From assembly GCA_964609455.1 (NCBI GenBank), contig CAZSRD010000009.1:1-32000 (forward strand): a DNA stretch of 32,000 nucleotides. The letters run 5' to 3'. This document shows, one piece after another, positions 13,293 to 29,402 of this stretch; within the stretch, counting starts at the first letter, position 1, and each line of letters begins with the position of its first letter. This DNA comes from an uncultured Methanosarcinales archaeon (GTDB lineage: Archaea; Nanobdellota; Nanobdellia; Woesearchaeales; JACPBV01). Under the pieces are notes generated by a model, which ran no database searches, was not told the DNA's origin, and saw only the letters and a list, made by a program, of their open reading frames with translations. A program made the translations under genes and the position numbers.

Positions 13293-14843
13293 GTGAACAA
13301 TATGGGCGGTAATGGTAAAATTAAGGAGTTTAACAAGAGAAAAGAAGAGTTTGAGTTAGACAAAGATTTAATCAAAAAACAGCATGAAAAGGGCAAGTTA
13401 ACAGCTGAAGAAAGGATTAATCTATTGATGGATGAGGGTTCTTTTACTGAGATTGATGAATTTGTTGAATTGAAGAGCCATGACTTTGATTTGCAGGGTA
13501 AGAAAAGAGCAAGGGATGGTGTAATCGTGGGATATGGCACTATAAACAAAAAGAGAGTTTGTGTTTATGCACAGGATTTTACTTTTATAGGCGGGTCAAT
13601 GGGGGAGATGCATAATAAGAAAATCTCTAAAATCATGGATTTTGCATTAAAAACCGGCTGCCCTTTAATAGGCTTATTTGATTCTGGCGGGGCTAGAATC
13701 CAAGAGGGAATAAACGGGTTAGATGGCGGAGGTAATATTTTTAAGATGAATACCCATTGTTCTGGAGTTATTCCCCAAATCTCTGCTATTTTAGGCCCAT
13801 GCGCCGGAATCGCAGTATATAGCCCCGCTTTGACTGATTTTGTTTTTATGGTTGGCAAAACCAGCTATATGTTCATTACTGGGCCTGATGTTGTTAAGAG
13901 TGTAACTGGGGAAAAGGTTGATTTTATAGGATTAGGCGGAGCCAATATCCATAATAAGAAAAGCGGTGTTGCTCATTTCTTTGCGAATAATGAGAAGGAA
14001 TGTATATTAAAGATAAAACAATTGTTGAGTTATTTACCCCAAAATAATTTAGATAATCCTACTTTAATCGACATGGGCGACTCTCCAGATAGATTGAATA
14101 ATAGTTTAAAGGATATTGTACCCAATGATGCAAAGAAAAGTTATGATATAATAGATGTAATAAACGAAGTTGTAGATAAGAACTCTTTTTTTGAAGTACA
14201 CTCAGATTATGCTCAGAACTGTGTTGTTGGTTTTGCAAGGCTGAATAGAAACGTTATAGGCGTGGTTGCAAATCAACCAAAGGTTTTGGCTGGGTGTTTG
14301 GACATAAACAGCTCAGATAAAATCTCTAGATTTGTAAGGTTCTCTGATGCATTTAACATTCCTTTGGTAAATTTTGTTGATGTTACTGGGTACTTGCCGG
14401 GTACGGAACAGGAATATGGCGGCGTTATTAGGCATGGCGCCAAAATACTTTTCGCATATTCAGAAGCTACTGTTCCTAAAGTTAGTTTGGTTCTTAGAAA
14501 GGCTTATGGTGGCGCGTATATAGCTTTAGTTAGCAAGGAGATGGGTTATGATTATGTTTTGGCTTGGCCAATGGCAGAAATTGCTGTAATGGGCGCTGAG
14601 CAAGCGGTTAAAATACTAAACAAGAAAGACATGAAGTCAAAAAATTGGGAAAAGATAAACCAAGAAAAAGTTAGGGAATTTTCTGATAAGTTTCTTAACC
14701 CATATGTAGCTGCTAAGGAAGGAAGGGTAGACAAGGTTATTGACCCAAAAGAAACAAGAATACAGTTGATTAGCGCTTTAGAAATGTTAATGAATAAAAG
14801 AGAGAGAAGACCTTCTAAAAAACACGGAAATATTCCTTTGTGA
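13293..14843 (+). CDS. pccB: Acyl-CoA carboxylase carboxyltransferase subunit (PccB / methylmalonyl-CoA decarboxylase-alpha family)
   Basis: The 516-aa protein has family hallmarks: KQHEKGKLTAEERINLLMDEGSFTEIDEF, AQDFTFIGGSMGE, and a second CT half VANQPKVLAGCLD...RKAYGGAYIA. The track start is GTG 13293. ATG 13302 is also possible. Confidence 0.9.
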   Translation: MNNMGGNGKIKEFNKRKEEFELDKDLIKKQHEKGKLTAEERINLLMDEGSFTEIDEFVELKSHDFDLQGKKRARDGVIVGYGTINKKRVCVYAQDFTFIGGSMGEMHNKKISKIMDFALKTGCPLIGLFDSGGARIQEGINGLDGGGNIFKMNTHCSGVIPQISAILGPCAGIAVYSPALTDFVFMVGKTSYMFITGPDVVKSVTGEKVDFIGLGGANIHNKKSGVAHFFANNEKECILKIKQLLSYLPQNNLDNPTLIDMGDSPDRLNNSLKDIVPNDAKKSYDIIDVINEVVDKNSFFEVHSDYAQNCVVGFARLNRNVIGVVANQPKVLAGCLDINSSDKISRFVRFSDAFNIPLVNFVDVTGYLPGTEQEYGGVIRHGAKILFAYSEATVPKVSLVLRKAYGGAYIALVSKEMGYDYVLAWPMAEIAVMGAEQAVKILNKKDMKSKNWEKINQEKVREFSDKFLNPYVAAKEGRVDKVIDPKETRIQLISALEMLMNKRERRPSKKHGNIPL

Positions 14844-15232
14844 AAATGCAAGATTTAAAGGTAAAAATTGATGGAAAGGAGTATAGTGTTAAGGTTGAAG
14901 AATTAGATTCTGGAAAACTTAAAGTATATTTTAATGGAGAAACTTTTGAGGTAGAAACAAAATCAGATATTAGTGATAAATTATTTCAAGGAATTGATGG
15001 TGGAAGGTTGGACAAGGAGAAGGGCACAATTTTGGCGCCCTTGCCAGGAATTATTTTTTCTGTTGATGTTAAGGTTGGTGATATTGTTAAGAAAGGAAAG
15101 AAATTAATTAGTTTGGTTGCAATGAAAATGGAGAATGAGATTGGCGCTAATGTGGATGGCAAGGTTAAGGAGATTAAAGTCAAGAAAGGGGATATTGTTA
15201 ACAAAGGAGATTTGCTAGTTGTTATTGAGTAA
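14840..15232 (+). CDS. accB: Biotin carboxyl carrier protein (biotinyl/lipoyl domain)
   Basis: The C-terminus is LAPLPGIIFSVDVKVGDIVKKGKKLISLVAMKMENEI, carrying the AMKM biotinyl-lysine motif. The start overlaps the upstream stop (GTGA at 14840-14843), with an alternative ATG at 14846. Confidence 0.9.
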   Translation: MKMQDLKVKIDGKEYSVKVEELDSGKLKVYFNGETFEVETKSDISDKLFQGIDGGRLDKEKGTILAPLPGIIFSVDVKVGDIVKKGKKLISLVAMKMENEIGANVDGKVKEIKVKKGDIVNKGDLLVVIE

Positions 15233-15234
15233 TT

Positions 15235-15378
15235 CTAAGAGGCTTCTAGTTCGTTCCATCTAAACTCTCTTAACTTAACGCCCCTTTTTCTTAGGTGGGT
15301 TGTAATCTCTTTGGTAAGTTCCTGCATATTTTCTGATTCTAATAGGTAAGCTAATTCTTCCAGCTCTTCAATATTCAT
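15235..15378 (-). CDS. 47-aa acidic helical micro-protein, unknown function
   Basis: My preferred start is ATG 15378 (MNIEELEELAYLLESENMQELTKEITTHLRKRGVKLREFRWNELEAS). It forms an ATGA overlap with the stop of the upstream small membrane ORF. The longer track version would overlap that ORF in another frame. Confidence 0.4.
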   Translation of the reverse strand: MNIEELEELAYLLESENMQELTKEITTHLRKRGVKLREFRWNELEAS

Positions 15379-15614
15379 TTTTCTTTCTCCCCTGATGTTT
15401 TTCCAAACAAAATACCTGCCAAAACATTTAAAGCCCAAGCTTGAAAAACATTAATCCTTAATGCTGGAAAATTTTTGAATACAAAGTTCCATAACCACAT
15501 TACTGGGAAAGCCAAGATTAAGCCGACTAATGCAGATAACAAAATGATGAGAAACATAGTGTAGCCCACTTCAAAGATTCTCTTCAACAGTGGTGTATTG
15601 TCTAAAAACCCCAT
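15375..15614 (-). CDS. 79-aa two-TM micro-membrane protein, unknown function
   Basis: My preferred start is ATG 15614 (MGFLDN...), preceded by ttGAGG. The two hydrophobic helices are YTMFLIILLSALVGLILAFPVMWLW and VFQAWALNVLAGILFG. A TATA-like tttataaa on the minus strand lies about 32 nt upstream. Confidence 0.45.
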   Translation of the reverse strand: MGFLDNTPLLKRIFEVGYTMFLIILLSALVGLILAFPVMWLWNFVFKNFPALRINVFQAWALNVLAGILFGKTSGEKEK

Positions 15615-15714
15615 CCTCAATAATCTGGTAATGTTTTTTAATTTATAAAGTTTATTGAAAATAATTATTTTCAAAACCAATATTTTTTAAAGGAGAATAT
15701 ATTAACTTTTTATT

Positions 15715-16104
15715 ATGAAGCATATAACCCAGCATAGGGTAAGGTATTCAGATACAGATCATTTTGGGGTAGTTTACTATGCTAGATACTTAGATTGGTT
15801 TGAAGCTGGTAGAACAGAGATATTAAGGGTAAATGGGATAACCTATTCTGAGCTAGAGACAAAAGGCATGTTTGCCCCTGTTGTTGAAGTTAAGGTAACT
15901 TATAAGAAACCAGCGAGATATGACGATATTGTTGAATTGGAGACAACTATAAATAGTATAGGGAATTCGAGTGTAAAGTTTAGCTATAAAGCATATAATC
16001 AGAAGAAGGAATTGTTGTTGGAGGCATATACGGTTAATGTTTTTATTAACAAAGAGATGAAGCCTGTAAGGGTTCCTGATGAAATTAGAAAGGTTTTAGA
16101 GTGA
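15715..16104 (+). CDS. Acyl-CoA thioesterase, 4HBT/YbgC hotdog family
   Basis: The 129-aa protein begins HRVRYSDTDHFGVVYYARYLDWFEAGRTE, the YbgC-type catalytic Asp motif. TTTTTAAA lies about 27 nt upstream of the ATG. Confidence 0.8.
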   Translation: MKHITQHRVRYSDTDHFGVVYYARYLDWFEAGRTEILRVNGITYSELETKGMFAPVVEVKVTYKKPARYDDIVELETTINSIGNSSVKFSYKAYNQKKELLLEAYTVNVFINKEMKPVRVPDEIRKVLE

Positions 16105-16761
16105 ATTTATTATAATATCTCCTTCCCTAACTTGGATTTTGTTTCCGTTTTTATCTTTTAAAATCAAAAAACAATCTTTGTCAATATCATAGGCTATACC
16201 TTTATAGGCCCCGTTTAGTGTTTTGACTTTAACTTGAGAGCCTAAGAAAGAGTTCCTTTTCCAATCACGGATTATTTTAGATTGTTTGCTTTTTAGGTAA
16301 GATTCAAAATTTTTTAATAACACTTTAATTACTTTTTCATTGTTTATCCCTTTCTTTTTTATATATTTTAATGAAATAGCTTTGTTTTTTAATGAAAATG
16401 GTATTTCATTATTGGTGTTTATGCCAATACCAACTATTGCTTTTTTTTCTTTAAGTTCTGTTAATATCCCACATACTTTCTTTTTTCCATAGATTAAGTC
16501 GTTTGGCCATTTAATCCTTATTTTTTTTATATTCAGCGCTTTTTTAGCAGAGAGAGCTGCTATGAATGTATAAAATTGAGGTTTTGTTGTTTTGGGTAAA
16601 ACCAAGGATAAATAGATTCCTCCTTTTGAAGATTTCCAATTGCGTTTGAACCTGCCTTTACCTTTAATTTGTTCATCAGCTATAATCACAGAATTAATCC
16701 CAAAGAATTTAGCTTTAGTGTTAGTAGAGTTTAATCTCTTAAAATGATATATTTTAAACAT
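16096..16761 (-). CDS. birA: Biotin-[acyl-CoA carboxylase] ligase, group I (no HTH domain)
   Basis: QIKGKGRFKRNWKSSKGGIYLSLVL matches the GRGRxxRxWxSxxG biotin-binding loop, and KWPNDL is present. There is a small C-terminal SH3-like domain. The start overlaps the accC stop by 8 nt. The 3' end overlaps the convergent thioesterase gene by 9 nt. Confidence 0.85.
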   Translation of the reverse strand: MFKIYHFKRLNSTNTKAKFFGINSVIIADEQIKGKGRFKRNWKSSKGGIYLSLVLPKTTKPQFYTFIAALSAKKALNIKKIRIKWPNDLIYGKKKVCGILTELKEKKAIVGIGINTNNEIPFSLKNKAISLKYIKKKGINNEKVIKVLLKNFESYLKSKQSKIIRDWKRNSFLGSQVKVKTLNGAYKGIAYDIDKDCFLILKDKNGNKIQVREGDIIINSL

Positions 16762-18637
16762 TTTCTTCAGAATTCATTTGTTCCTGTCTAGCAGATGTTA
16801 CCCATGCAGATTGTTTTTTTTCTATCTTACCTTTGTCAAGGTATTGTGAAACTGCAGTTGTAACAATCAATATTTTTTCCTTTTTTGTCAATCCATTTTT
16901 CTTTACTTTTTTTGTTTTTAGTTGGCCTAATATATTGTTTTTTTCAATGAAGTTGGTTGTGGTATCCCCTTTTGCAAATGCTTTGTTGCTCAATACAACT
17001 TTGTGGAATGGTATTGTTGTTTCTACCCCTTCTATGATGAATTCTTCAAGGGCCCTTTTCATTCTTGAAATGGCCTCACTTCTGTTAGAGCCCCTACACA
17101 TTAGCTTGGCAATTAAGGAATCATAATGCGGGCTTACTACATGTCCTGCATGGCAAGAGCTACAAACTCTGATACCTGGGCCTCCCGGGGGCAGATAATT
17201 TATTATTGTTCCTGTAGTGGGGCAGAAGTCCTCTGCCGGGCATTCTGCATTTATTCTACATTCAATAGCTGCGCTATCAATCTTTATATCTTCCTGCTTA
17301 TATGCTAATTTTGCTCCTGCAGCTATTTTAATTTGCTCTTTTATTAAATCAACACCAGTAACCATTTCGGTTATTCCATGTTCAACCTGGATTCTTGTAT
17401 TCATCTCCATAAAATAGAAGTTTCTGTTTTTGTCTAATAAAAATTCTACAGTTCCAGCACCTATATATTTAACTGCATTAACAATCTTAATTGCTGCTTC
17501 ACCCATTCTCCGCCTTAACTCTTTATCTACTGCTGGAGAGGGGGCCTCTTCTATTAGTTTTTGATGTCTTCTTTGAATGCTACATTCTCTTTCCCCTAAG
17601 TGGATAGCATTACCAAACTTATCTGCCAATACTTGGAATTCTATGTGGCGCGGAGCTTCCATATATTTTTCCATATATAGCGAATCATCACCAAAAGAGG
17701 ATTGTGCCTCTGCTTGCGCGCTCTTAAAGGCTTTTGAAATCTCCTTTTCATTTTCTATAACTCTCATTCCTTTTCCACCACCACCAGAAACAGCTTTTAC
17801 AATCACAGGATACCCTATTTCTTTTGCGGACTTTATGGCGTCCTTTATGTTCTTTAGTGATTTTGTTCCAATAATCAAAGGTATTCGCAAGCGCTTGATG
17901 GTTTGCCTTGCTTTGTCTTTATTTCCCATTAGAGTAATAGATTTTGCTGAAGGACCAATAAACTTAATATTCTTTTTTTCACATAATCTTGCAAAATCAC
18001 TATTTTCAGCTAGAAAACCATAACCTGGGTGGATAGCATCAGCTTTTGCTTTTTTTGCTATTTTAATTATCTTTTTATAATCCAAATAACTAGTTGGCTT
18101 ATTCCCTACTGAATAAGATTTGTCTGAAAATTTTACAGCTAAGGTATTTTTATCTTGTTTTGTGTGTATAATGGCTGTTTGTATGTCAAGTTCTCTACAA
18201 GCCCTAACTATCCTTAAGGCAATCTCTCCTCGGTTTGCGATTAAAACTCTTTTAAATAACCTTTCTTTACTTACTTTTGTATACTCTTTTTCTTCTTCAA
18301 TGTTAGTTAGCCCTCTTGCGAGCATATCTAAAAAGGATTTTGACGAGCTATCTTTTATTACTTTATTAATCTGTTTTTCATTTAGGTTGGGAAGTTTTTT
18401 GGCAAGATTTTTTGTTATTAAATCACCAAAACTATTCAAATCTGGATTATGCAATAATTTTTCATCCTTTTCTAATACAACCAAATGAGATTTTATGAGC
18501 CTTTCTATCTCATCATATAAATATGGCATTTTTTCATGCGTTCTTTTGGCTAATTTTTTCATGAAGGCATAGCTTTTTTCTATAGGGCTTAATAGGTTAT
18601 TTAAGATTTTGGCTATCTTTTTCTGATTGCTTTCCAT
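16754..18637 (-). CDS. accC: Biotin carboxylase with an extra N-terminal region of about 125 aa and an extra C-terminal region of about 50 aa
   Basis: The core starts at residue 128 or so (FKRVLIANRGEIALRIVRACRELDI). It includes the ATP-grasp loop KAVSGGGGKGMRV and MEMNTRIQVEHGITE. The protein is 627 aa against about 450 aa for typical AccC. A TATA box lies 27 nt upstream of ATG 18637. Confidence 0.9.
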   Translation of the reverse strand: MESNQKKIAKILNNLLSPIEKSYAFMKKLAKRTHEKMPYLYDEIERLIKSHLVVLEKDEKLLHNPDLNSFGDLITKNLAKKLPNLNEKQINKVIKDSSSKSFLDMLARGLTNIEEEKEYTKVSKERLFKRVLIANRGEIALRIVRACRELDIQTAIIHTKQDKNTLAVKFSDKSYSVGNKPTSYLDYKKIIKIAKKAKADAIHPGYGFLAENSDFARLCEKKNIKFIGPSAKSITLMGNKDKARQTIKRLRIPLIIGTKSLKNIKDAIKSAKEIGYPVIVKAVSGGGGKGMRVIENEKEISKAFKSAQAEAQSSFGDDSLYMEKYMEAPRHIEFQVLADKFGNAIHLGERECSIQRRHQKLIEEAPSPAVDKELRRRMGEAAIKIVNAVKYIGAGTVEFLLDKNRNFYFMEMNTRIQVEHGITEMVTGVDLIKEQIKIAAGAKLAYKQEDIKIDSAAIECRINAECPAEDFCPTTGTIINYLPPGGPGIRVCSSCHAGHVVSPHYDSLIAKLMCRGSNRSEAISRMKRALEEFIIEGVETTIPFHKVVLSNKAFAKGDTTTNFIEKNNILGQLKTKKVKKNGLTKKEKILIVTTAVSQYLDKGKIEKKQSAWVTSARQEQMNSEENV

Positions 18638-18660
18638 ATTGCTTTGTAGTTGTTTTTAGC

Positions 18661-18673
18661 TTTAAAAACCTTA
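18661..18673 (-). promoter_or_regulatory. accC promoter: TAAGG element plus TATA TTTTTAAA (read on the minus strand)
   Basis: The reverse complement of 18661-18675 is cCTAAGGTTTTTAAA. The TATA centre lies 27 nt from ATG 18637. Confidence 0.5.
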
Positions 18674-18693
18674 GGTTTTTGATTGGATAAAAC

Positions 18694-18707
18694 ATAAGCT
18701 TTTTAAA
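18694..18707 (+). promoter_or_regulatory. fabZ-operon promoter: ATAAGC element plus TATA TTTTTAAA
   Basis: cATAAGCTTTTTAAAg lies about 47-56 nt upstream of the fabZ start. The predicted leader contains the SD-like GGGGTG. Confidence 0.45.
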
Positions 18708-18750: not shown

Positions 18751-19260
18751 GTGTTAATTATGAAAACAATAGATGAATTAAAGAATGATAAAGGTGAAAT
18801 TGATAGCAATGCTATTAAACAAATAATACCTTATGAAATACCTTTCTTAATGATAGACAGGGTTCTTAGCTTAGATAAAAATAAAGTGGTTGCTATTAAG
18901 AATACATCTGCCAATGAAGAATTCTTCAAAGGCCATTTTGCAGGATTTCCAATAATGCCTGGAGCTTTAATCATAGAGGGCATGGGGCAAGCTGCTACTT
19001 TATTATTGCGGTATAACCTTGAAAATCACTGGGAGAAGGAAGTTTTAGCTTATAAAATAAAAGAAGCAAAGTTTTTAGCACCAACATTTCCAGGTTACCA
19101 GCTTAAATATGAAATTACTATGCTTGGTAAGGACGAAAGGGGAGCTTTAATGAGCGGAAAGGCTATTGTGGATGATAATGTTGTAGCTGAAGCAACTATG
19201 ATGCTTGCTGTTGTGGATAGAAGGGATTTTAGGTCTAAAGCATCCCCTGTTTATAAGTGA
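18751..19260 (+). CDS. fabZ: 3-hydroxyacyl thioester dehydratase, FabZ family hotdog
   Basis: FFKGHFAGFPIMPGALIIEGMGQAA matches the FabZ active-site motif (HFxxxPxMPGxLxxExxxQ). The track start is GTG 18751. ATG 18760 behind GGGGTG is more likely. Confidence 0.85.
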   Translation: MLIMKTIDELKNDKGEIDSNAIKQIIPYEIPFLMIDRVLSLDKNKVVAIKNTSANEEFFKGHFAGFPIMPGALIIEGMGQAATLLLRYNLENHWEKEVLAYKIKEAKFLAPTFPGYQLKYEITMLGKDERGALMSGKAIVDDNVVAEATMMLAVVDRRDFRSKASPVYK

Positions 19261-19266
19261 TTTCTT

Positions 19267-20391
19267 ATGGAAAGATATGTGAAGGGGGTAGGGATGACTA
19301 AGTTTGGGGTAGAGGATAAAACTACACACAGCATGGCTTTTGAAGCTATAAATCTTGCTTTGGATGATTCTAATATGAATATGGGGGATATTGACGCTGT
19401 TGTTGTCAGCACTGTGGATACTAAAATAAATGAGGAGCGGCAGAGGATGTATGGCGTTGTTTTGAGCAGCATGCTGAAAAAACAGATGCCAATAATCAGG
19501 GTGCCTGCTGTTTGCGGTGGAGGAGGAGCTGCTTTTTGGACAGCTTTGAGATTAAAATATAACAATATTCTGGTTTTGGGTGTTGACAAAGTTTTAGCTG
19601 GCCCAACACCAATAATCACAAAGGAAATAATGAATGCAGGTGATAATTTTTGGGAGCAAGAAGAAGGTTTGGTGTTTCCTGCTCAGAATGCTTTGGTTGC
19701 TCAGCAACATATGCTTAAATATGGCACAACACATGATGATTTAGCATTGATTGCATATAAAAATCATCATAATGGCAGCCTAAACCCCAAAGCAAGATTC
19801 TATGGCAAAAAGGTTACTTTAGAGGACATTAAAAAATCACCTATTGTGGCAACACCCTTTAATCTGTATGATTGTAGCATAAGTGTAAATGGGGCTGCTG
19901 CCGTCATTATTTCAAATGAAAAATCAGATATTAAAGTTATAGGATCTGCTTTAGCAACAGATTATTTGGCTCCTTTTGAGAGGAAAGATATGACTGTATG
20001 GAATGGAACAGTGAAAGCAGGAAAAGAAGCATTTAAACAAGCTGGTGTTGAACCAAAAGATATTGATGTAGCTGAGCTTCATGATGCGTTTTCAATTATA
20101 GAGTTAATTGCTTACGAGGATTTGGGATTTTGCAAAAAAGGAGAAGGAAAAGAGCTTATAAGGCAAGGGCATACTACTCTAGATGGGAAAATGCCTGTTA
20201 ACACATCTGGCGGATTGAAGGCAAGGGGGCATCCAATCTCTCCAACAGGAGTTGCTATGATTGTTGAGATTGTAGATCAGTTAAGGAATAGATGCGGGGA
20301 AAGGCAGGTTAAGGATGCTAAATTAGGATTAACACATAATGTTGGTGGAGCAGGAGGAACAACTACTGTTCACATCCTCAGAAAAATATAA
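19267..20391 (+). CDS. Archaeal-type thiolase (SCP-x/acetyl-CoA C-acyltransferase-like), paralog 1
   Basis: The 374-aa protein has the VKGVGMTKFG N-terminus, the nucleophile region VPAVCGGGGAAF, and NTSGGLKARGHPISPTG and HNVGGAGGT near the C-terminus. Confidence 0.85.
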   Translation: MERYVKGVGMTKFGVEDKTTHSMAFEAINLALDDSNMNMGDIDAVVVSTVDTKINEERQRMYGVVLSSMLKKQMPIIRVPAVCGGGGAAFWTALRLKYNNILVLGVDKVLAGPTPIITKEIMNAGDNFWEQEEGLVFPAQNALVAQQHMLKYGTTHDDLALIAYKNHHNGSLNPKARFYGKKVTLEDIKKSPIVATPFNLYDCSISVNGAAAVIISNEKSDIKVIGSALATDYLAPFERKDMTVWNGTVKAGKEAFKQAGVEPKDIDVAELHDAFSIIELIAYEDLGFCKKGEGKELIRQGHTTLDGKMPVNTSGGLKARGHPISPTGVAMIVEIVDQLRNRCGERQVKDAKLGLTHNVGGAGGTTTVHILRKI

Positions 20392-22830: not shown

Positions 22831-23571
22831 ATGAGCTTAAAAGGAAAAAATGCTTTAATAACCGGTTCAGCTCGTGGACTAGGAAAAGAAATGGCTTTAG
22901 CTCTTGCTAAAGAAGGCTGCAATATAATAATAAATGATATTGAAGTGATGAAGGAAGAAGCACTTAAAACTGTAGCTGAGATTAAGAATTTTGGGGTTAA
23001 ATCTGAGTTTGTTGCTGCTGATGTTTCTAATTTTGAAAGCTGCAAGAAAATGGCTGAAGATATTAAGAAGAAATTCGGCAAGGTGGATATTTTAGTAAAT
23101 AATGCTGGGATTACTAAAGACAGAACTCTTAAGAAGATGACGCCAGAGGAATGGTATCCTGTGATTAATGTTAACTTGAACAGTTTGTATAATGTTACAC
23201 ATAATGTTTTGGAGATGATTCCAGAGGGTGGCAGGATAATAAATATATCTTCTATTGCCGGAATATCAGGCAATTTCGGGCAGACTAATTATGCTTCGAC
23301 TAAAGCTGGAGTGATTGGATTTACAAAGTCATTAGCTAAGGAGGTTGGCAAGATGAAAATAACAGTAAATGCTGTTGCTCCTGGCTTTATAGAATCAGCT
23401 ATGACTGATAAGATACCGATGGAGATGTTATCGCAGATATTACAGTTGATTCCACTTAGAGAGATTGGCCAGCCATTAGATGTGGCTAATGCTGTTAAGT
23501 TCTTGGCGTCTGACGATGCGAAGTATATATCTGGAACGGTAATTAAGGTGGATGGTGGTATTAGCTTCTAA
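22831..23571 (+). CDS. fabG: 3-oxoacyl thioester reductase, classical SDR (FabG-like)
   Basis: Motifs are TGSARGLG (TGxxxGxG), NNAG, and the catalytic SSIAG...YASTKAG (S-Y-K). AAGGTGA lies 6 nt before the ATG. Confidence 0.85.
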   Translation: MSLKGKNALITGSARGLGKEMALALAKEGCNIIINDIEVMKEEALKTVAEIKNFGVKSEFVAADVSNFESCKKMAEDIKKKFGKVDILVNNAGITKDRTLKKMTPEEWYPVINVNLNSLYNVTHNVLEMIPEGGRIINISSIAGISGNFGQTNYASTKAGVIGFTKSLAKEVGKMKITVNAVAPGFIESAMTDKIPMEMLSQILQLIPLREIGQPLDVANAVKFLASDDAKYISGTVIKVDGGISF

Positions 23572-23697: not shown

Positions 23698-23910
23698 ATG
23701 AGTAAAATGGGATTTGGAGAAGGATTTGGAGATAGAGAGATGCATAAGGCAACTTGTGCAGATTGTGGTAATGAATGTGAGGTTCCTTTTAAACCAACAG
23801 AAGGAAGACCGGTTTATTGCAGGGACTGTTACCAAAAACATAAGAAACCAAGATTTGGCGGTGGCGGAGGAGGCGGTGGCGGAAGAGGCGGAGGAAGACC
23901 TAGATTCTAA
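23698..23910 (+). CDS. Small CxxC-x17-CxxC zinc-ribbon protein with a Gly/Arg (RGG-like) tail
   Basis: The ribbon is HKATCADCGNECEVPFKPTEGRPVYCRDCYQKH. The tail is PRFGGGGGGGGGRGGGRPRF. AAGGTGA directly abuts ATG 23698, so ATG 23707 (spacing 9 nt) is the likelier start. Confidence 0.7.
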   Translation: MSKMGFGEGFGDREMHKATCADCGNECEVPFKPTEGRPVYCRDCYQKHKKPRFGGGGGGGGGRGGGRPRF

Positions 23911-23991: not shown

Positions 23992-25146
23992 ATGAATTTT
24001 GACTTTACACCAGAACAATTGGCAATAAAGAAGATGATTACACAGTTTGTAGACTCTGAAATAAAGCCATATGCTGCAGATGCTGATCAAAAAGAGATTT
24101 TTCCAGCTGAGCAGATCAAGAAGTTAGCTAGATTGGGGGTTATGGGTATGTCTATACCTAAGAAATATGGTGGAGCAGAGTTAGATAATATTTCTCAGGC
24201 AATAATCATGGAGGAAGTAAGCAGAGGATGCAATGCAACTGCTGTCACAATGGGAGCTCATGCTTCTCTTACATGCCACCCCATTGTTAATTTTGGTACA
24301 GAAGACCAGAAGAAGAGATTCTTGCCAAAATTAGCTTCTGGAGAGTATTTGGGGGCATTTGCACTTACTGAGCCAAATGCAGGCAGCGATGCTGTTAATG
24401 TGCAAACAACTGCTATTAGGGATGGTGACAAGTATATAGTTAATGGCAATAAGATATTCATAACAAATGGTGGAAAGGCTGATTTGATATGCATTGTTAC
24501 AACAACTGATAAAAGCAAGAAGCATAATGGATTAAGCATTTTTGCTTTTGAGCCTAAGAAAACAGAGGGATTTAGTTTAGGAAAAAAAGAGGATAAATTA
24601 GGGTTAAGGGGCTCAAATACACAAGAATTAGTCTTCAGGGACATGAGGCTTCCTAAGGATAATTTAATTGGCGGAGTTGAAGGAGAAGGTTTTAAGATTG
24701 CAATGAGTGTTTTCAATTCTGGAAGAATTGGCATAGGGATGCAAGGTGTGGGAATTGCGCAGGCTGCTTTTGATGAATGTTTGAAATATGTACAAGAAAG
24801 AGAACAGTTTGGAAGAAAGCTGCATAAGTTTCAGGCTTTACAATTTATGCTTGCTGATATGGCAACTAAGATAGAGGCCGCTAGGCTGTTGTGTTACAAG
24901 GCTGCTGATATTAAGGATAAAGGAAAGAGATATGTAAAAGCAGCTGCTATGGCCAAGTTATATGGTTCGGATGTGGCTATGGAAGTTACTAGAGCCGCTA
25001 TACAGATCCATGGTGGTTATGGCTATATGAAAGATTATCCTTTAGAAAGATTTTACAGGGATGCTAAGATTACAGAGATTTATGAAGGAACTTCTGAAAT
25101 TCAAAGATTGGTTATTGCAGCTGAATTATTAGGGAGAGGTTTCTAA
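23992..25146 (+). CDS. Short/medium-chain acyl-CoA dehydrogenase (butyryl-CoA dehydrogenase-like)
   Basis: The 384-aa protein has [12 protein letters not shown], a C-terminal [13 protein letters not shown] (the catalytic Glu position of Bcd/SCAD/MCAD), and IHGGYGY. Confidence 0.9.
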
Positions 25147-25147
25147 G

Positions 25148-25942
25148 ATGAACATTATTGTATGCATAAAGCAAGTACCTGATACAAATGAAGTTAAGAT
25201 AGACCAAAAAACAGGAACGTTGATTAGGGAAGGGGTTCCAACTATTATGAATCCTGATGATAAGCATGCTTTAATAGAAGCTATTAAGATAAAGAATAAA
25301 CATAAAGGGAAAGTCACTGTTATATCAATGGGGCCACCACAGGCTGAAGAAGCTTTGCGTGAATCGCTTGCTTTTGGAGCTGATGAAGCAATTTTACTTT
25401 GTGATAGGGCTTTTGCTGGTTCGGATACATGGGCAACTGCAAATGCAATAGGTGCTGCGATAAAACATATTGGCAATTATGACTTATTGTTGTTTGGAAG
25501 GCAGGCAATAGACGGGGATACTGCCCAAGTTGGACCTCAAGTTGCAGAATTTTTAAGCCTTCCACAAATTACCTATGCTCAGAAAATTGAGTTAGGTGAA
25601 GGAAAGGTTAAGGTAGAGAGGCAGATGGAAGAAGGCTACGAAGTTATAGAGGCTGCTCTCCCTTGTTTAATCACATGTGTTTCTGAGATTAATGAAATAG
25701 GATATCCTAGCCTACATGGCATAAAAGAAGCTTATAGAGAGAAAGAAGTTAGGGTATTGAGCGCAGAAGAAATTGAGGTAGACAAATATAAGATAGGATT
25801 ATTGAGTTCTCCTACATCTGTCAAGAAGTCATTTACTCCTCCAGCAAAGGGGCAGGGGCAGATTTTAAAAGGTTCTACCAAAGAAGTTGTCGAGAAGCTT
25901 GTTTCAATATTAAAAGAAAAGGAGATAATAGGTGCTTTTTAA
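25148..25942 (+). CDS. etfB: Electron transfer flavoprotein beta subunit
   Basis: It begins MNIIVCIKQVPDT and is 264 aa. It starts 2 nt after the ACAD stop. Confidence 0.9.
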   Translation: MNIIVCIKQVPDTNEVKIDQKTGTLIREGVPTIMNPDDKHALIEAIKIKNKHKGKVTVISMGPPQAEEALRESLAFGADEAILLCDRAFAGSDTWATANAIGAAIKHIGNYDLLLFGRQAIDGDTAQVGPQVAEFLSLPQITYAQKIELGEGKVKVERQMEEGYEVIEAALPCLITCVSEINEIGYPSLHGIKEAYREKEVRVLSAEEIEVDKYKIGLLSSPTSVKKSFTPPAKGQGQILKGSTKEVVEKLVSILKEKEIIGAF

Positions 25943-27105
25943 TGGTGAAAGTAAAAGTAGCTATGCAATGCCCGGAAACACAGCTTAATCTAGGCGGGAT
26001 TGTATTAATCAGGGGAAATGATTTTGAAGATGTACCGAATATGCCTGAAGTTCAGCAGGCTATAGATAATGGTTATCTAGAAGTTTTGAAAGAAGAAAAG
26101 AATCTTGAAAAAAAGGAAAAGAAAGAGGGCGAGGAAGTTTTGGTTTTTGCAGAGCAAAGGCATAATAAAATATCAAGGGTAGTTTTTGAATTATTAGGCA
26201 AGGCAAGGGAGTTAGCAGATAAATTAAATGTCAAAACAGCAGCTATTTTATTGACGGATAAGGATTCTGGTTTATCCCAGGATCTGATAAACTATGGAGC
26301 TGATAAGGTTTATTTGGCAGAGTCACCCATATTAAAAAATTATCAAACTGATTTTTATACTAAGGTTGTATCTGAACATATCCGGAAAACAAAACCCCAG
26401 GTTGCCATATATGGGGCAACACATATTGGAAGAGATTTAGCACCAAGAATTGCCCAGAGGATTAATACTGGTTTAACTGCTGATTGTACTGGTTTAGATA
26501 TTACAGAAGACGGATTATTATTACAGACAAGGCCTGCTTTTGGAGGCAATTTAATGGCTCAGATAATATGCAAGAAGCATAGGCCGCAGATGTCAACTGC
26601 AAGACCTGGCGTCTTTAAGATGAGAGAGAAGGATGGAAGCAGGAAAGGAGAGATAGTTAAAATTGCTGCAAATGTCTCTGAGAAAGACAGCAAACTAAAG
26701 GTTTTGGAGATAATAAAAGAAGCTAAGAAAAAAGTTAATCTAGAGGAAGCAAAGATAATTGTTTCAGGCGGAAGAGGATTAGGAGAGAAAAAGAACTTTA
26801 GCTTAGTTGAAGATCTTGCACGATTGTTAAAAGCAGAGGTTGGTGCTTCAAGGGCGGCTGTCGATTCTGGATGGATAGCTAAAGACCACCAGGTTGGACA
26901 GACAGGAAAAACAGTGAGGCCTAAGCTTTATATTGCAATAGGAATTTCTGGAGCTATACAGCATAAGGCTGGAATGCAGAATTCTGATATGGTTATAGCA
27001 ATAAACAAGGATTCCAGCGCGCCTATATTTGAAGTAGCTGATTATGGGATTGTAGGTGATTTGTTTAAGGTTGTTCCTGAGCTTATTAACGAGCTGAAAA
27101 AATAA
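25942..27105 (+). CDS. etfA: Electron transfer flavoprotein alpha subunit with an extra N-terminal segment of about 65 aa
   Basis: The ETF-alpha core runs from VLVFAEQRHNKI to the FAD signature PKLYIAIGISGAIQHKAGM...VIAINKD. The start ATG overlaps the etfB stop (TAATG), which supports the long N-terminus. Confidence 0.9.
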   Translation: MVKVKVAMQCPETQLNLGGIVLIRGNDFEDVPNMPEVQQAIDNGYLEVLKEEKNLEKKEKKEGEEVLVFAEQRHNKISRVVFELLGKARELADKLNVKTAAILLTDKDSGLSQDLINYGADKVYLAESPILKNYQTDFYTKVVSEHIRKTKPQVAIYGATHIGRDLAPRIAQRINTGLTADCTGLDITEDGLLLQTRPAFGGNLMAQIICKKHRPQMSTARPGVFKMREKDGSRKGEIVKIAANVSEKDSKLKVLEIIKEAKKKVNLEEAKIIVSGGRGLGEKKNFSLVEDLARLLKAEVGASRAAVDSGWIAKDHQVGQTGKTVRPKLYIAIGISGAIQHKAGMQNSDMVIAINKDSSAPIFEVADYGIVGDLFKVVPELINELKK

Positions 27106-27118
27106 TAAGGTTTATAAT
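27105..27118 (+). promoter_or_regulatory. plsC promoter: ATAAGG element plus TATA TTTATAAT
   Basis: ATAAGGTTTATAAT has its TATA centre about 27 nt upstream of ATG 27142. Confidence 0.5.
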
Positions 27119-27141
27119 AAACTAGCTATTTTTCTAGTGTT

Positions 27142-27792
27142 ATGGTCTACCCAATAGGCAGGCTGGTTATACCTGCTATAATGAAAATATGGCTGAAGAA
27201 AGTAGAAGGAACAGATAATATCCCAAAAAATAAAGCATTTATTGTTTGCCCTAATCATTCTAGTTTTTATGATGATCTTTTGATCCCTTCAATCATTGTT
27301 CCTAGAGTAAACAGGGTATTACATATGTATGTTAACAGGAAGTTTTTCAGGCCTTTTTTATTGAGGCGGTTTTTATATTGGGGCGGCTCAATTCCTGTAG
27401 AGGTTTATGACCACCCTAAAAAGAAGGATGTAAACAAGAATGCTTTTAAGAAAGCTGTGTACTATTTAAAGAAAGGAGATTCTGTTGGTGTGTATCCTGA
27501 AGGACATAGAACTCTTGATGGCGAATTGCAAAGAGCAAAGGTTGGAGCAGCCAGATTAGCTTTAACAGCCAAAGTTCCAGTTTTACCTGTAGGAATAATT
27601 GGCTCAAGGGACGTATTGCCCAAAGGGCAATCATTACCCAGGATAAGGAAGATTGTTAGAGTTATTATTGGGAAGCCATTATATTTTGATAAGTATTATG
27701 GGAAACAGGGTGATAGGAAAGTATTAAATAATGTAACTAGAAAAATAATGAGGGAGATTGGAAAATTAATCGGAAAGAGGTACAAGTACTAA
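27142..27792 (+). CDS. plsC: Glycerolipid acyltransferase, PlsC/LPLAT family, paralog 1
   Basis: Motifs are NHSSFYD (HX4D), YPEGHRT, and an N-terminal hydrophobic segment. Confidence 0.8.
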   Translation: MVYPIGRLVIPAIMKIWLKKVEGTDNIPKNKAFIVCPNHSSFYDDLLIPSIIVPRVNRVLHMYVNRKFFRPFLLRRFLYWGGSIPVEVYDHPKKKDVNKNAFKKAVYYLKKGDSVGVYPEGHRTLDGELQRAKVGAARLALTAKVPVLPVGIIGSRDVLPKGQSLPRIRKIVRVIIGKPLYFDKYYGKQGDRKVLNNVTRKIMREIGKLIGKRYKY

Positions 27793-27793
27793 A

Positions 27794-28426
27794 ATGGTGC
27801 ATGCTATTGAGAAGTTGACAATTATACCCATTATAAAGTTGTGGGTAAAGAAAATAAACGGATTAGAGGATATACCTAAGGACAGAAACTTTATACTATC
27901 TGCAAACCACTCAAGTTATATGGACCACCTTATCCTTTCTTCGATAATAATAACCAAACTAAACAAAAGAGTTTATTACCTTGCGAAGAAAGAACATTTT
28001 GAAACTCCTTTTCAGAAGAGGTGGCACGAACATGTTGGTGCTATACCTATTGACAGGCAGGCAGGCGGAAAAGAAGCATTGAAAACAGCAATAAAATATC
28101 TAAAAAGTAATAAGATAATAGGGGTTTATCCAGAGGGGACAAGAACACTAACAGGAAATCTCCAAAGAGGAAAGACAGGCGCAGCGAGATTAGCTTTAGC
28201 AGCCAAGGTTCCTGTACTGCCTGTAGGCTTAATTGGAACTTTTGAGGTGCTGCCTAAAGGAAAGAATATTCCTAGATTTAAGAGGGTTGTTGTTAATATT
28301 GGGAAGCTGATGTATTTTGATAAGTATTATGGGATGGAAAATGATAAAAAGACATTGAGATTAGTTACCACTAAGGTAATGAAAGAGATTGCTAAATTAA
28401 CAGGCAAGGAGTATAATTTTGATTAA
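27794..28426 (+). CDS. plsC: Glycerolipid acyltransferase, PlsC/LPLAT family, paralog 2
   Basis: Motifs are NHSSYMD and YPEGTRT. It is collinear with paralog 1 (GAARLAL.AKVPVLPVG.IG, YFDKYYG). It starts 1 nt after the paralog 1 stop. Confidence 0.8.
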   Translation: MVHAIEKLTIIPIIKLWVKKINGLEDIPKDRNFILSANHSSYMDHLILSSIIITKLNKRVYYLAKKEHFETPFQKRWHEHVGAIPIDRQAGGKEALKTAIKYLKSNKIIGVYPEGTRTLTGNLQRGKTGAARLALAAKVPVLPVGLIGTFEVLPKGKNIPRFKRVVVNIGKLMYFDKYYGMENDKKTLRLVTTKVMKEIAKLTGKEYNFD

Positions 28427-29402
28427 GATGAAAATCGCTGTAATAGGTGCAGGCGGATGGGGAACAACTTTGGCTAATTTACTAGCTTGTAAGGGGTATA
28501 AGGTTAAGTTGTGGGCTTTTGAAAAAGAGGTAGTTGATGACATTAACAATAAAAAAGAAAATACAAGATTTCTAAGGGGCGTTAATTTGTCTGAAAATCT
28601 AGAATCAACTAATAATCTGAAAGGAGCTATTGTTGGGGCAGAAATTATAATCACTGCAATACCTTCTTCATTTCTAAGGGATATGGCAAAGAAGATTTCA
28701 GAATTTATAGATAAAGATACAATTGTTATTTCTGTGACAAAAGGATTAGAGGATATAACATTTAAAAGAATGTCTGAAATCTTAGAGGAAGAATTGAAAG
28801 TTAAGGTTGTTGCTTTGTCAGGACCAAATCATGCTGAAGAGGTTAGCAGAAAGATTCCTACAGCCACTGTGATAGCATCTAAACATTTAGATGTACTGCC
28901 AAAGGTTAAAGATGTTTTGGAAACAGAGTATTTTAAGGTTTATCCTCATGATGATATTATAGGGGTAGAAGTTTGCGGAGCAATAAAGAACATAACTGCT
29001 ATTGCAGTAGGTGTTTGTGATGGTTTGAAGCTAGGGGATAATGCAAAGGCTTCTATTATAACATTTGGGTTGATGGAGATGAGCAGAGTAGGCAGATTTT
29101 TTGGTGCAAAAAGATCCACTTTTTATGGTTTAGCAGGGGTTGGCGATTTAGTAGCTACATGCACATCTAAACATTCCAGAAACAGGTTTGTTGGAGAGAG
29201 AATTGCAGAAGGAAAGAGTTTTGATGATATAAAAAAAGAGATGCATGGCATGGTAGCTGAGGGCATAAAAACGACAAAAGCAGTTTATGATTTGGCCAAG
29301 GAAAAGAACATAGATTTACCTCTTACAAAACAAGTGTATAAGGTCTTGTATGAAAAGAAAGAATTAAAAAAAGCAATAAAAGATTTGATAACCTTAATAT
29401 GA
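28419..29402 (+). CDS. gpsA: NAD(P)H-dependent sn-glycerol-3-phosphate dehydrogenase
   Basis: MKIAVIGAGGWGTTLA is a Rossmann motif. The GpsA family core includes SGPNHAEEV and GAIKN. The likely start is ATG 28428, just after the plsC stop. The track start, TTG 28419, overlaps the plsC stop. Confidence 0.85.
   Translation: MIKMKIAVIGAGGWGTTLANLLACKGYKVKLWAFEKEVVDDINNKKENTRFLRGVNLSENLESTNNLKGAIVGAEIIITAIPSSFLRDMAKKISEFIDKDTIVISVTKGLEDITFKRMSEILEEELKVKVVALSGPNHAEEVSRKIPTATVIASKHLDVLPKVKDVLETEYFKVYPHDDIIGVEVCGAIKNITAIAVGVCDGLKLGDNAKASIITFGLMEMSRVGRFFGAKRSTFYGLAGVGDLVATCTSKHSRNRFVGERIAEGKSFDDIKKEMHGMVAEGIKTTKAVYDLAKEKNIDLPLTKQVYKVLYEKKELKKAIKDLITLI

Follow-up and report, generated by a model that had tools for sequence, protein, structure and literature searches.

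We examined a 32,000-nucleotide stretch of DNA (the window; contig CAZSRD010000009.1, positions 1 to 32,000) and found, between positions 13,293 and 29,402, a contiguous block of genes in which every step of a proposed route from acyl-CoA to phosphatidate has a family assignment with intact catalytic motifs. We favor the view, at a probability of roughly 55%, that this block is a mosaic of archaeal and bacterial gene types forming an anabolic lipid supercluster, which would work on CoA thioesters without acyl carrier protein (ACP). Our assignments cover the whole enzyme set that an earlier note on this DNA had claimed: condensation, (R)-ketoreduction, dehydration, enoyl reduction, a thioesterase, formation of sn-glycerol-3-phosphate (G3P), and two PlsC-family acyltransferases. 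The archaeal host proposed in that note is likewise borne out by archaeal/eukaryotic-type uS2, RadA, and RadB. The closest relatives that bear names (found with GpsA and the DUF362 protein, each with hundreds of close relatives) are called Nanoarchaeota archaeon or Candidatus Woesearchaeota archaeon, and their similarity indicates that the host is a DPANN archaeon of the Woesearchaeota/Nanoarchaeota.

Genes were called from a listing of open reading frames (ORFs) combined with Pfam and NCBIfam profile searches of the window, and were compared with related loci, labelled L001-L013, and with a 400-kb JGI contig. Each of the 16 genes that the earlier note had placed in the block was recovered in its position, while three small conserved ORFs had been overlooked there. 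The condensation, ketoreduction, and dehydration steps are assigned to the following genes:

18751..19260, plus strand: FabZ-type hotdog 3-hydroxyacyl dehydratase, 169 aa (NF000582, 129 bits against a cut-off of 113)
19267..20391, plus strand: thiolase 1, archaeal acetyl-CoA acetyltransferase (ACAT) type, 374 aa (Cys83, HDAF, GHP)
20471..21601, plus strand: DUF35::DUF362 fusion, 376 aa (PF04015 over residues 127-321)
21656..22777, plus strand: thiolase 2, 373 aa (PF22691, NF004720; Cys81, HDAF, GHP)
22831..23571, plus strand: FabG/PhaB-like short-chain dehydrogenase/reductase (SDR), a 3-ketoacyl reductase, 246 aa (TIGR01830, 296.9 bits against a cut-off of 297.75, borderline)

The two thiolases are the condensing enzymes of the block. 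Thiolase 1 has its best PDB matches in 7YVY, 4YZO, and 6ESQ_A, the last being the thiolase of a complex of DUF35 with HMG-CoA synthase (HMGCS); thiolase 2 is 55% identical to thiolase 1, and the two form separate orthologue groups in L001-L003. Cys, HDxF, and GHx motifs mark active DUF35-partnered ACATs (PMC12960953), and both proteins appear to be archaeal ACAT-type enzymes with their catalytic motifs intact. Similarity to a FabH model was faint (4.7e-10), and neither Pfam nor NCBIfam gave a FabH/FabB/FabF or FabD match in the window. We also find, as the earlier note had held, no ACP, FabD, ketoacyl-ACP synthase (KAS), FabI/K/L, PlsB, PlsX, or PlsY in the block by Pfam and NCBIfam. For ACP, tblastn with E. 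coli and B. subtilis queries against the window and L001-L008 gave a best E value of 2.9, and no block ORF carries a PP-binding domain in either profile collection. Of the ORFs in both large gaps, which were weighed as ACP candidates, none qualified: one encodes a zinc-ribbon protein, and PP-binding similarity is lacking in the rest.

Between the thiolase genes lies the DUF35::DUF362 fusion, a domain pairing that the earlier note had named. The predicted fold confirms it, and the DUF35 part proved invisible to Pfam: models PF01796 and PF12172 gave nothing on the N-terminus even at E = 10, and PDB sequence and profile searches with this region found no match. In an AlphaFold2 model built on 30 homologues (pLDDT 87), residues 1 to ~100 matched the DUF35 subunits 7PXP_A, 6OK1_D, 6ESQ_E, 5M3K_B, and 3IRB by Foldseek (E 2e-4 to 2e-3, probability 1.00; 26% identity to 6ESQ_E), and the matched proteins include the DUF35 subunits of BbsAB, Ltp2-ChsH2, the archaeal thiolase/HMGCS complex, PhlABC, MucABC, and SSO2064. 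The C-terminal domain matched LarA and malate racemase (2YJG, 7S91, 6D6Z, 5HUQ; E 1e-6 to 1e-5, TM score about 0.4), and DUF362 shares a Pfam clan, CL0471, with DUF2088 (PMC11770544). The model thus predicts a zinc ribbon plus OB fold at the N-terminus and a LarA-like DUF362 domain at the C-terminus. The family is small, with only 176 matches, nearly all of the named ones from Woesearchaeota or Nanoarchaeota. Across 30 members of the DUF362 domain, compared by sequence alignment only, the invariant residues are K130, T145, E171, N230, K235, T236, E247, N248, D287, Q293, and D319, and no histidine is among them; since the domain has no conserved histidine, a LarA-type racemase or epimerase function was not adopted.

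The dehydratase belongs to PF07977 (FabZ/FabA-like) and has an intact HF..PG...E catalytic motif, while the reductase also scores 263.9 bits against TIGR01829 (acetoacetyl-CoA reductase). A FabG/FabZ pair fits biosynthetic (R)-stereochemistry, as in bacterial type II fatty acid synthesis (FASII) and PhaB.

Enoyl reduction is assigned to three consecutive genes:

23992..25146, plus strand: Bcd-type acyl-CoA dehydrogenase/enoyl-CoA reductase (ACAD), 384 aa (best PDB match 5OL2_C)
25148..25942, plus strand: EtfB, bifurcating type, 264 aa (best PDB match CarD, 6FAH_B)
25942..27105, plus strand: EtfA, 387 aa (best PDB match CarE, 6FAH_A)

For all three, the scores with bifurcating complexes (6FAH, 5OL2, 4KPU, 7QH2) were two to three times those with canonical electron-transferring flavoproteins (ETFs). 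The ACAD reached 443 bits against 5OL2_C, the Bcd of the C. difficile bifurcating complex, with 4L1F next, and 516 bits against NF042972 (AcrC). EtfB gave 302 bits with 6FAH_B, 273 with 5OL2_B, 227 with 4KPU_B, and 193 with 7QH2 (LctB), compared to <100 for the canonical human and Paracoccus ETFs; for EtfA the bifurcating forms gave 381 (6FAH_A), 365 (5OL2_A), and 332 bits, and the canonical form 178. EtfB aligns over residues 1-261 to residues 1-261 of 4KPU_B, and its residues 117-130 read GRQAIDGDTAQVGP, with Gly at 123. A Gly at position 123 (A. fermentans numbering), small rather than bulky, permits binding of a second (beta) FAD (PMC12630350). EtfA begins with a 64-residue extension (25942-26135) that corresponds to the CarE ferredoxin domain and is degenerate here: its cysteines are lost in the marine window and L002 copies and also in L007, while the L008 EtfA (7479-7700) retains two Cys-rich CxxCxxC...CP Fe-S motifs, like CarE. 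The extension therefore looks like a decayed ferredoxin domain. The three genes thus appear to encode an enoyl-CoA reductase of the electron-bifurcating Bcd/EtfAB kind. The earlier note had described an ACAD/ETF running in reverse, which does not hold: the closest systems are electron-bifurcating Bcd/EtfAB and CarCDE, and EtfB has the diagnostic Gly123. Reduction of crotonyl-CoA is the usual, exergonic direction of the Bcd/EtfAB family in fermenters.

The glycerolipid end of the block consists of three genes:

27142..27792, plus strand: PlsC-family acyltransferase 1 (PlsC1), 216 aa (PF01553, 3e-22; HSSFYD, an HX4D motif, and YPEGHRT)
27794..28426, plus strand: PlsC-family acyltransferase 2 (PlsC2), 210 aa (PF01553, 1e-29; HSSYMD and YPEGTRT)
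28419..29402, plus strand: GpsA, NAD(P)H-dependent sn-glycerol-3-phosphate dehydrogenase, 327 aa (NF000942, 405 bits against a cut-off of 257)

GpsA also matches PF01210, PF07479, and PF20618, overlaps PlsC2 by 8 nt, and abuts the uS2 gene. The PlsC paralogues are 48% identical to each other and score below the TIGR00530 cut-off of 102.95 bits (58.7 bits for PlsC1 and 100.1 for PlsC2). Their sole PDB match is T. maritima PlsC (5KYM), to which the alignment begins at query residue 21 and chain residue 66, such that the N-terminal two-helix membrane motif is missing. No transmembrane helices were predicted in either protein, with one marginal hydrophobic stretch in PlsC2 (135-153). A search of 1.84 billion representative proteins with a cluster look-up identified no bacterial donor of PlsC, the closest sequences being metagenomic proteins. 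The PlsB, PlsX, and PlsY families had no match in the window or in the annotated related loci.

The remaining part of the block encodes a carboxylase, a thioesterase, and small proteins; we list with them the zinc-ribbon ORF between FabG and ACAD:

13293..14843, plus strand: acyl-CoA carboxyltransferase (CT), PccB/12S type, 516 aa (PF01039, 2e-180)
14840..15232, plus strand: biotin carboxyl carrier protein (BCCP), 130 aa (PF00364; LVAMKMENE with the AMKM motif)
15235..15438, minus strand: small ORF, 67 aa or shorter, without Pfam match
15375..15680, minus strand: small conserved membrane protein, ~79 aa from an internal Met, without Pfam match
15715..16104, plus strand: YbgC/FadM-family 4HBT acyl-CoA thioesterase, 129 aa (TIGR00051, 102.6 bits against a cut-off of 68.7)
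16096..16761, minus strand: BirA biotin-protein ligase, ligase domains only (TIGR00121, 149.5 bits against a cut-off of 83.1; PF03099 and PF02237)
16754..18637, minus strand: biotin carboxylase (BC), 627 aa (TIGR00514, 643 bits against a cut-off of 626.5)
23698..23910, plus strand: zf_Tbcl_2 treble-clef zinc-ribbon protein, 70 aa (PF23477, 2e-21)

All components of a three-subunit acyl-CoA carboxylase of the archaeal/actinobacterial type are thus present: BC, a BCCP with AMKM, a 12S/PccB-type CT, and a biotin ligase. CT, whose gene is overlapped by that of BCCP by 4 nt, scores 755 bits against TIGR01117, under that model's cut-off, and its best PDB matches are 1VRG, S. coelicolor PccB (1XNW), and S. 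tokodaii 1X0U. The residue following its GGAY is Ile, which presumably occupies the PccB D422/AccB I420 position, where Ile would go with broad acetyl/propionyl specificity. PDB matches of BC span residues 126-570 only, leaving a 127-aa N-terminal extension and a ~60-aa tail (~570-627), both conserved; the N-terminal extension is conserved over its full length in L001 and L003 and has no Pfam match, and no homologue was detected for either part. By eye alone the extension looks helical, and the L009 BC orthologue is shorter, at 562 aa. The thioesterase also matches PF13279 and PF03061.

The small ORF at 15235..15438 is kept at the same position in L001 (63% identity) and L003 (42%), and in the JGI contig, L012, and L013 gene calling places an ORF of 47-48 aa there. 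The neighboring membrane protein is hydrophobic over residues 34-69; its identity in L001 and L003 amounts to 72-79%, which in L003 exceeds that of most neighboring genes, and it might anchor or regulate the carboxylase. A Na+-pumping decarboxylase, to which CT/BCCP and a small membrane ORF could have belonged, was rejected: there is no OAD_beta subunit, and a biotin carboxylase is present. The zinc-ribbon protein, with its C-terminal Gly/Arg-rich tail, looks like a nucleic-acid binder inside a metabolic cluster, and L004, L013, and the JGI contig carry it as well, again between FabG and Bcd.

The families give the enzyme types, and from them we infer in which order the reactions run, that FabZ and FabG accept CoA esters, that complexes form, how long the chains become, and which protein acylates G3P. 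The two ACAT-type thiolases, held on the DUF35 domain of the DUF362 fusion as a scaffold, would condense an acyl-CoA with a C2 unit; the FabG/PhaB-like SDR would yield (R)-3-hydroxyacyl-CoA, from which FabZ would form trans-2-enoyl-CoA; and Bcd/EtfAB would reduce the enoyl-CoA with NADH, ferredoxin being reduced alongside. This exergonic step would help draw the unfavorable thiolase condensation, which is the principle of reverse-beta-oxidation chain elongation, while in relatives whose clusters lack Bcd/Etf another reductase would have to perform it. GpsA would turn dihydroxyacetone phosphate into G3P, and the PlsC paralogues would acylate G3P twice from acyl-CoA to give phosphatidic acid, one of them acting as the G3P acyltransferase. 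The YbgC thioesterase may edit or release acyl-CoA. BC, BCCP, the PccB-type CT, and BirA would constitute an ATP-dependent acyl-CoA carboxylase with malonyl- or methylmalonyl-CoA as product, which this pathway probably consumes.

Comparison with relatives showed which parts of the block are constant. A scan of reference genomes found three syntenic loci, in which tblastn showed the same gene order at 52-90% identity, and the same order was seen in L001, L002, L003, L007, L009, L012, L013, and the JGI contig at 45-90% protein identity. In contigs of 137-400 kb the full order runs from RadB through CT-BCCP, the small ORFs, the thioesterase, BirA-BC, FabZ-thiolase-DUF362-thiolase-FabG, the zinc ribbon, ACAD-EtfB-EtfA, and PlsC-PlsC-GpsA to uS2-LigT-TRAM-RadA. 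The block order, both junctions included, occurs in at least nine independent marine and groundwater assemblies. RadB-CT adjacency is kept in L001, L003, L009, L012, L013, and the JGI contig, the order uS2-LigT-TRAM-RadA in most relatives, and exact-protein look-ups found an identical GpsA-uS2-LigT junction in three further ENA assemblies.

These data bear on whether the block is an assembly chimera, or bacterial contamination joined to archaeal DNA, as the bacterial type of FabZ, FabG, GpsA, PlsC, and Bcd/Etf might suggest. The RadB-CT and GpsA-uS2-LigT-TRAM junctions recur in independent assemblies and in contigs of up to 400 kb, GC content is uniform, boxes resembling the archaeal B recognition element (BRE) and TATA element occur throughout, and the thiolases and DUF35 are archaeal in type. 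Since the junctions are identical in independent assemblies from varied samples and habitats, a chimera is excluded, and we give this explanation practically no weight; the block is native, as the earlier note had supposed. It appears instead to be a feature of long standing, passed down vertically within one DPANN clade of marine and groundwater habitats.

The relatives differ in the accessory parts. The groundwater loci L003 and L009 lack ACAD/Etf in the cluster and keep the remainder; L009 also has an inversion and adds an FA_hydroxylase-family gene, methyltransferases, and a CoA_transf_3 gene. Three 2-oxoacid:ferredoxin oxidoreductase (POR) subunits lie directly 3' of the DUF362 gene in L007 and L012. 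L008, from groundwater, retains only the FabG-to-GpsA part, together with four CoA-transferase genes, an NMO (FabK-like) gene, a gene for DUF212, which we take to be a divergent PAP2 family, and Dxr adjoining GpsA. No carboxylase was found in L002 within 8 kb upstream of FabZ; in most relatives the carboxylase and BirA sit beside the cycle, in a small-genome organism and including lineages without Bcd/Etf. Because FabG and the thiolases keep PlsC-PlsC-GpsA beside them even in clusters without Bcd/Etf (L003, L009), the apparent constant core comprises FabZ, both thiolases, the DUF362 fusion, FabG, and the PlsC-PlsC-GpsA set. The carboxylase module usually accompanies this core; Bcd/Etf appears to be an accessory, dispensable in some relatives.

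We favor the anabolic direction for the following reasons: PlsC-PlsC-GpsA remains invariably linked to the genes for condensation, reduction, and dehydration, also where Bcd/Etf is missing; the block combines an ATP-dependent carboxylase and BirA with (R)-type FabG and FabZ; the window contains no crotonase, (S)-3-hydroxyacyl-CoA dehydrogenase, acyl-CoA synthetase, or ETF:quinone oxidoreductase (ETF-QO); POR, a supplier of acyl-CoA, sits inside the cluster in L007 and L012; and the accessories of the cluster variants (FA_hydroxylase, methyltransferases, DUF212, Dxr, the NMO/FabK-like gene) are lipid-related. The converse would be beta-oxidation, in which ACAD/ETF, thiolase, hydratase, and dehydrogenase degrade fatty acids and the carboxylase handles odd-chain propionyl-CoA. 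ACAD, ETF, and thiolase are the classic trio of that pathway, a PccB-type CT is typical of propionyl-CoA carboxylase, and Dibrova-type analyses place such archaeal genes there. The Etf of the block, however, is of the bifurcating type; Pfam and NCBIfam searches of the window found no ETF-QO or FixCX nearby and no ECH, 3HCDH (as main hit), AMP-binding, or ETF_QO domains; FabG and FabZ are of the (R)-specific biosynthetic type; methylmalonyl-CoA epimerase and mutase are not present; PlsC x2, GpsA, and POR would be left unexplained; and a respiratory chain is not expected in these DPANN. Beta-oxidation is thus very improbable, and the bifurcating Etf and the lack of crotonase, (S)-dehydrogenase, and ETF-QO support the earlier note in calling it a poor fit.

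A fermentative use of the same cycle is harder to set aside. Reverse beta-oxidation could yield butyryl-CoA or medium-chain acyl-CoA, to balance redox and to conserve energy through ferredoxin, with acid released by the thioesterase or CoA transferases and with PlsC-PlsC-GpsA acting separately to esterify scavenged fatty acids. The closest counterparts of Bcd, EtfB, and EtfA are the complexes of clostridial butyryl-CoA dehydrogenase and of caffeyl-CoA reductase, and the genes stand in the order bcd-etfB-etfA, presumably that of the clostridial butyrate operon. Characterized Bcd enzymes work on short chains, and PlsC1 has a promoter-like box of its own (27106-27118, BRE/TATA-like). The thioesterase within the block, the CoA-transferase genes of L008 (four) and L009 (CoA_transf_3), and the POR of the L007 and L012 clusters would, together with Bcd/EtfAB, meet the needs of a butyrate or caproate fermenter, which makes this rival a serious one. 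Yet the energy-conserving Bcd/Etf is precisely the dispensable part, absent from the L003 and L009 clusters, while the thiolases, FabG, FabZ, the carboxylase, and PlsC-PlsC-GpsA remain linked without it. An ATP-consuming carboxylase with BirA would be senseless in such a pathway, the block has no acyl-CoA synthetase for scavenged acids, and, to our knowledge, Hbd and crotonase serve in the known butyrate pathways where FabG and FabZ stand here. Woesearchaeota are predicted to be fermenters (PMC8204110, PMC10936187), and on balance we regard fermentation as a possible reading, if an unlikely one, that deserves to be taken seriously.

Alternatively, the cycle could elongate or edit short and medium chains taken from a host or the environment, and the products be re-esterified with no de novo synthesis. 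DPANN genomes are reduced and their dependence on a host for lipids is assumed (PMC11868695); CoA transferases occur in some cluster variants; and the two thiolase paralogues could be specialized for longer primers. An in-cluster POR (L007, L012) that supplies acetyl- or branched acyl-CoA primers, the retention of the carboxylase and BirA, and the lack of a free-fatty-acid activation enzyme in the block all speak against such acyl-chain remodelling, and we judge it improbable.

The anabolic route from acyl-CoA to phosphatidate has its own difficulties. Bcd-type enzymes are characterized on C4-C8 substrates, so that their action on long chains is a presumption; FabZ and FabG are ACP-dependent in bacteria; and DPANN archaea are generally held to scavenge lipids. 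The earlier note had called the block a self-contained module; the linked enzyme set stands, yet the block is not self-contained, for it has no recognizable PlsB/PlsY-type G3P acyltransferase, no CdsA/CarS or other CDP-activation enzyme, and no head-group enzyme. The features of the PlsC paralogues given above (scores below the TIGR00530 cut-off, no transmembrane helices, no T. maritima N-terminal membrane motif) count on the same side, and the absence of ACP covers the window and the eight loci L001-L008, not whole genomes. The ester-lipid product is so far predicted from genes alone, and co-expression of the block, which comprises several transcription units, is assumed. Finally, the carboxylase is without an obvious consumer in a thiolase scheme, and the use of malonyl-CoA was experimentally disproved for one Sulfolobus ketothiolase (bioRxiv 10.1101/2024.07.05.601840).

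Two explanations are possible for the carboxylase: malonyl-CoA may be condensed decarboxylatively by the thiolase/DUF35::DUF362 assembly, or the genome may encode a ketosynthase at another place. In its most far-reaching form, the first of these would have a free-standing DPANN archaeon make its own bacterial-type diacyl-sn-glycerol-3-phosphate membrane lipids by a hybrid pathway without precedent, with malonyl-CoA from the carboxylase, the thiolases and DUF35::DUF362 acting as an ACP-free decarboxylative ketosynthase, and a bifurcating Bcd/EtfAB coupling acyl-chain reduction to ferredoxin reduction. We consider this doubtful. If true, an archaeon would in nature have crossed the lipid divide completely, with condensation chemistry that is new and with DUF362 taking part in catalysis.

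The block can be compared with known systems of several kinds, among them the ACP-free fatty acid synthesis (FAS) of S. acidocaldarius. That system consists of ketothiolase (KT)/DUF35 Saci_1121/1120, the SDR Saci_1104, the MaoC dehydratase Saci_1085, and the enoyl-CoA reductase Saci_1115 (Schmerling et al. 2024, bioRxiv 10.1101/2024.07.05.601840), and its KT/DUF35/SDR/dehydratase complex was shown experimentally to make fatty acids (same source). The two have in common CoA intermediates, the absence of ACP, an archaeal ketothiolase with DUF35, an SDR ketoreductase, a hotdog-fold dehydratase, and a separate enoyl-CoA reductase. Unlike in S. acidocaldarius, two thiolase paralogues flank a DUF35 fused to a LarA-like DUF362 in the window, FabZ replaces MaoC, ACAD with EtfAB replaces an enoyl-CoA reductase that depends on NADPH, and an acyl-CoA carboxylase, PlsC x2, and GpsA are linked. 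The Sulfolobus paper makes no mention of PlsC or glycerol-3-phosphate (bioRxiv 10.1101/2024.07.05.601840).

Enoyl reduction in the window resembles bifurcating Bcd/EtfAB and CarCDE (C. difficile 5OL2, A. fermentans 4KPU/4L1F, A. woodii 6FAH), its closest solved homologues, in the order bcd-etfB-etfA, in Gly123 of EtfB, and in the CarE-like EtfA ferredoxin domain (L008), and it shares with reverse-beta-oxidation elongation a thiolase cycle drawn by exergonic enoyl-CoA reduction. It differs from the bacterial systems in its archaeal host, in the degenerate EtfA ferredoxin domain of the window, in having FabG and FabZ rather than Hbd and Crt as partners, and in standing in a lipid cluster rather than a fermentation operon. 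Of the bacterial FASII and phosphatidate pathways, the block recalls GpsA, FabZ, FabG, BC, and BirA, which pass or nearly pass bacterial cut-offs, and PlsC, through paralogues with HX4D and PEG(T/H)R that match T. maritima PlsC; in contrast to those pathways, it has no ACP, FabD, KAS, FabI, PlsB, PlsX, or PlsY, and two short PlsC paralogues must cover both acylations, presumably with acyl-CoA as the donor. The thiolase/HMGCS/DUF35 complex of M. thermolithotrophicus (6ESQ) and its relatives PhlABC, MucABC, BbsAB, and Ltp2-ChsH2 provide the same thiolase family and a zinc-ribbon/OB DUF35 encoded between two thiolase-superfamily genes. Here, unlike in 6ESQ, HMG-CoA synthase is lacking and the second partner is another true thiolase, the DUF35 carries an extra DUF362, and the surroundings are genes for fatty acids and glycerolipids, in a clade for which the methylerythritol phosphate (MEP) pathway is reported, rather than mevalonate synthesis.

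The block is contiguous on the DNA, as the earlier note had it, and is not one transcription unit: it contains ~8-10 promoter-preceded units, with BirA and BC on the minus strand, and is made up of two separable modules, the carboxylase and the elongation genes with PlsC-PlsC-GpsA. The tight spacing described in that note (60 nt or less) applies to 11 of the 15 junctions between named genes, and four are wider:

BCCP to thioesterase: 482 nt, containing the small ORFs
BC to FabZ: 113 nt, divergent
Thiolase 1 to DUF35::DUF362: 79 nt
FabG to ACAD: 420 nt, containing the zinc-ribbon ORF

Composition and promoter style are uniform, as had been claimed, with GC content of 0.34-0.39 inside the block compared to 0.29-0.39 outside, no break at the block, and BRE/TATA-like boxes ~25-35 nt 5' of many starts both inside and outside. 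These boxes read TTTATAA or TTTTTAAA. One 13-mer, TAAGGTTTTTAAA, recurs in the window:

13258-13270, plus strand: exact copy of TAAGGTTTTTAAA, the BRE/TATA box of CT, ~35 nt upstream of the start
18661-18673, minus strand: exact copy, ~35 nt upstream of the BC start
18695-18707, plus strand: copy with one mismatch, upstream of FabZ

It is found also upstream of CT in L001 and L013. As a cluster-specific regulator site it was rejected, for its 10 matches compare to 6.8 ± 2.5 in shuffles, which is no enrichment. The element is present in intergenic regions adjoining uS2 in L009 and L013, and it is therefore a generic BRE/TATA promoter rather than a cluster-specific operator. The window contains no tRNA or Rfam elements.

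The flanking genes RadB, archaeal uS2, TRAM, and RadA, given in the earlier note, were confirmed by profile search, and a LigT gene overlooked there lies between uS2 and TRAM:

12289..12996, plus strand: RadB, left flank, an archaeal marker (TIGR02237, 216 bits against a cut-off of 172)
29403..30008, minus strand: ribosomal protein uS2, archaeal/eukaryotic type, right flank (TIGR01012, 251 bits against a cut-off of 211.5)
30183-30710, minus strand: LigT 2'-5' RNA ligase/phosphoesterase

A glycosylation block (8870-12208, minus strand) adjoins RadB and encodes a GT22/PMT-like membrane glycosyltransferase, a thioredoxin-like protein, and a GT2; the adjacency of GT2 and RadB is kept in L012, L013, and the 400-kb JGI contig. 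Further upstream, two overlapping, very large genes (207-5042 and 5039-7906, both plus strand) encode proteins of 1611 and 955 aa with Big_13 bacterial Ig-like, fn3, and thrombospondin type-3 repeats. These are probably surface or adhesion proteins, a kind common in DPANN genomes. Among the related loci, L001 carries a radical-SAM/SPASM protein (4293-5297, minus strand) inserted between the thioesterase and BirA, and L012 a sugar epimerase/dehydratase and an aminotransferase (12215-14319) between POR subunits. L002 (CAZNZT010000005.1) is labelled Methanosarcinales; its gene order matches that of the Nanoarchaeota/Woesearchaeota loci and its proteins are 55-83% identical to those of the window, so that this bin label is probably mistaken.

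Individual genes of this kind have been reported from archaea before. Bacterial-type lipid genes in MG-II/Poseidoniales and Lokiarchaeota were described by Villanueva et al. 2017, as cited in PMC7852524; Coleman et al. 2019 (PMC6431249) reported GpsA in Woesearchaeota and PlsC in DPANN generally; and Zhang et al. 2024 (PMC10936187) reported FabG, FabI, and FabZ in DPANN metagenome-assembled genomes. Castelle et al. 2021 (PMC8204110) independently noted that, in a Woesearchaeota clade with the MEP pathway, fatty-acid genes of bacterial type lie together, that for G3P dehydrogenase among them, a co-location that Dxr beside GpsA in L008 matches; the supplementary text of that paper does not describe the cluster gene by gene. 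Our block belongs to the same phenomenon of gpsA, plsC, and fab homologues in archaeal genomes and differs from those gene lists in giving the full architecture and a fixed place between RadB and uS2. The literature that we searched held no account of the thiolase/DUF35::DUF362 core, a bifurcating Bcd/Etf, a linked carboxylase, or tandem PlsC. The finding is thus less new than the earlier note had implied, the genes themselves having already been coarsely reported (PMC8204110, PMC10936187, PMC6431249).

Our data partly support the conclusion that an archaeal ACP-free fatty-acid route is joined here to bacterial-type lipid genes, with the carboxylase, the DUF362 domain, and the small conserved ORFs left unexplained. 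Fatty-acid esters of G3P in archaea are central to the "lipid divide" and to models of the origin of eukaryotic membranes. Earlier reports offered gpsA, plsC, and fab homologues scattered over archaeal bins; here they lie in one conserved, native block of ~16 kb that holds the whole proposed route, and the ester-lipid question therefore becomes testable at a single locus. The block also offers a natural reverse-beta-oxidation-like cycle with a bifurcating Bcd/Etf in an anabolic setting, a new DUF35 fusion that may reveal the function of DUF362, and an unexplained pairing of a carboxylase with thiolases. Other authors still take these archaea to be unable to make lipid building blocks (PMC11868695), and the anabolic route proposed here, if true, would revise this view of the DPANN.

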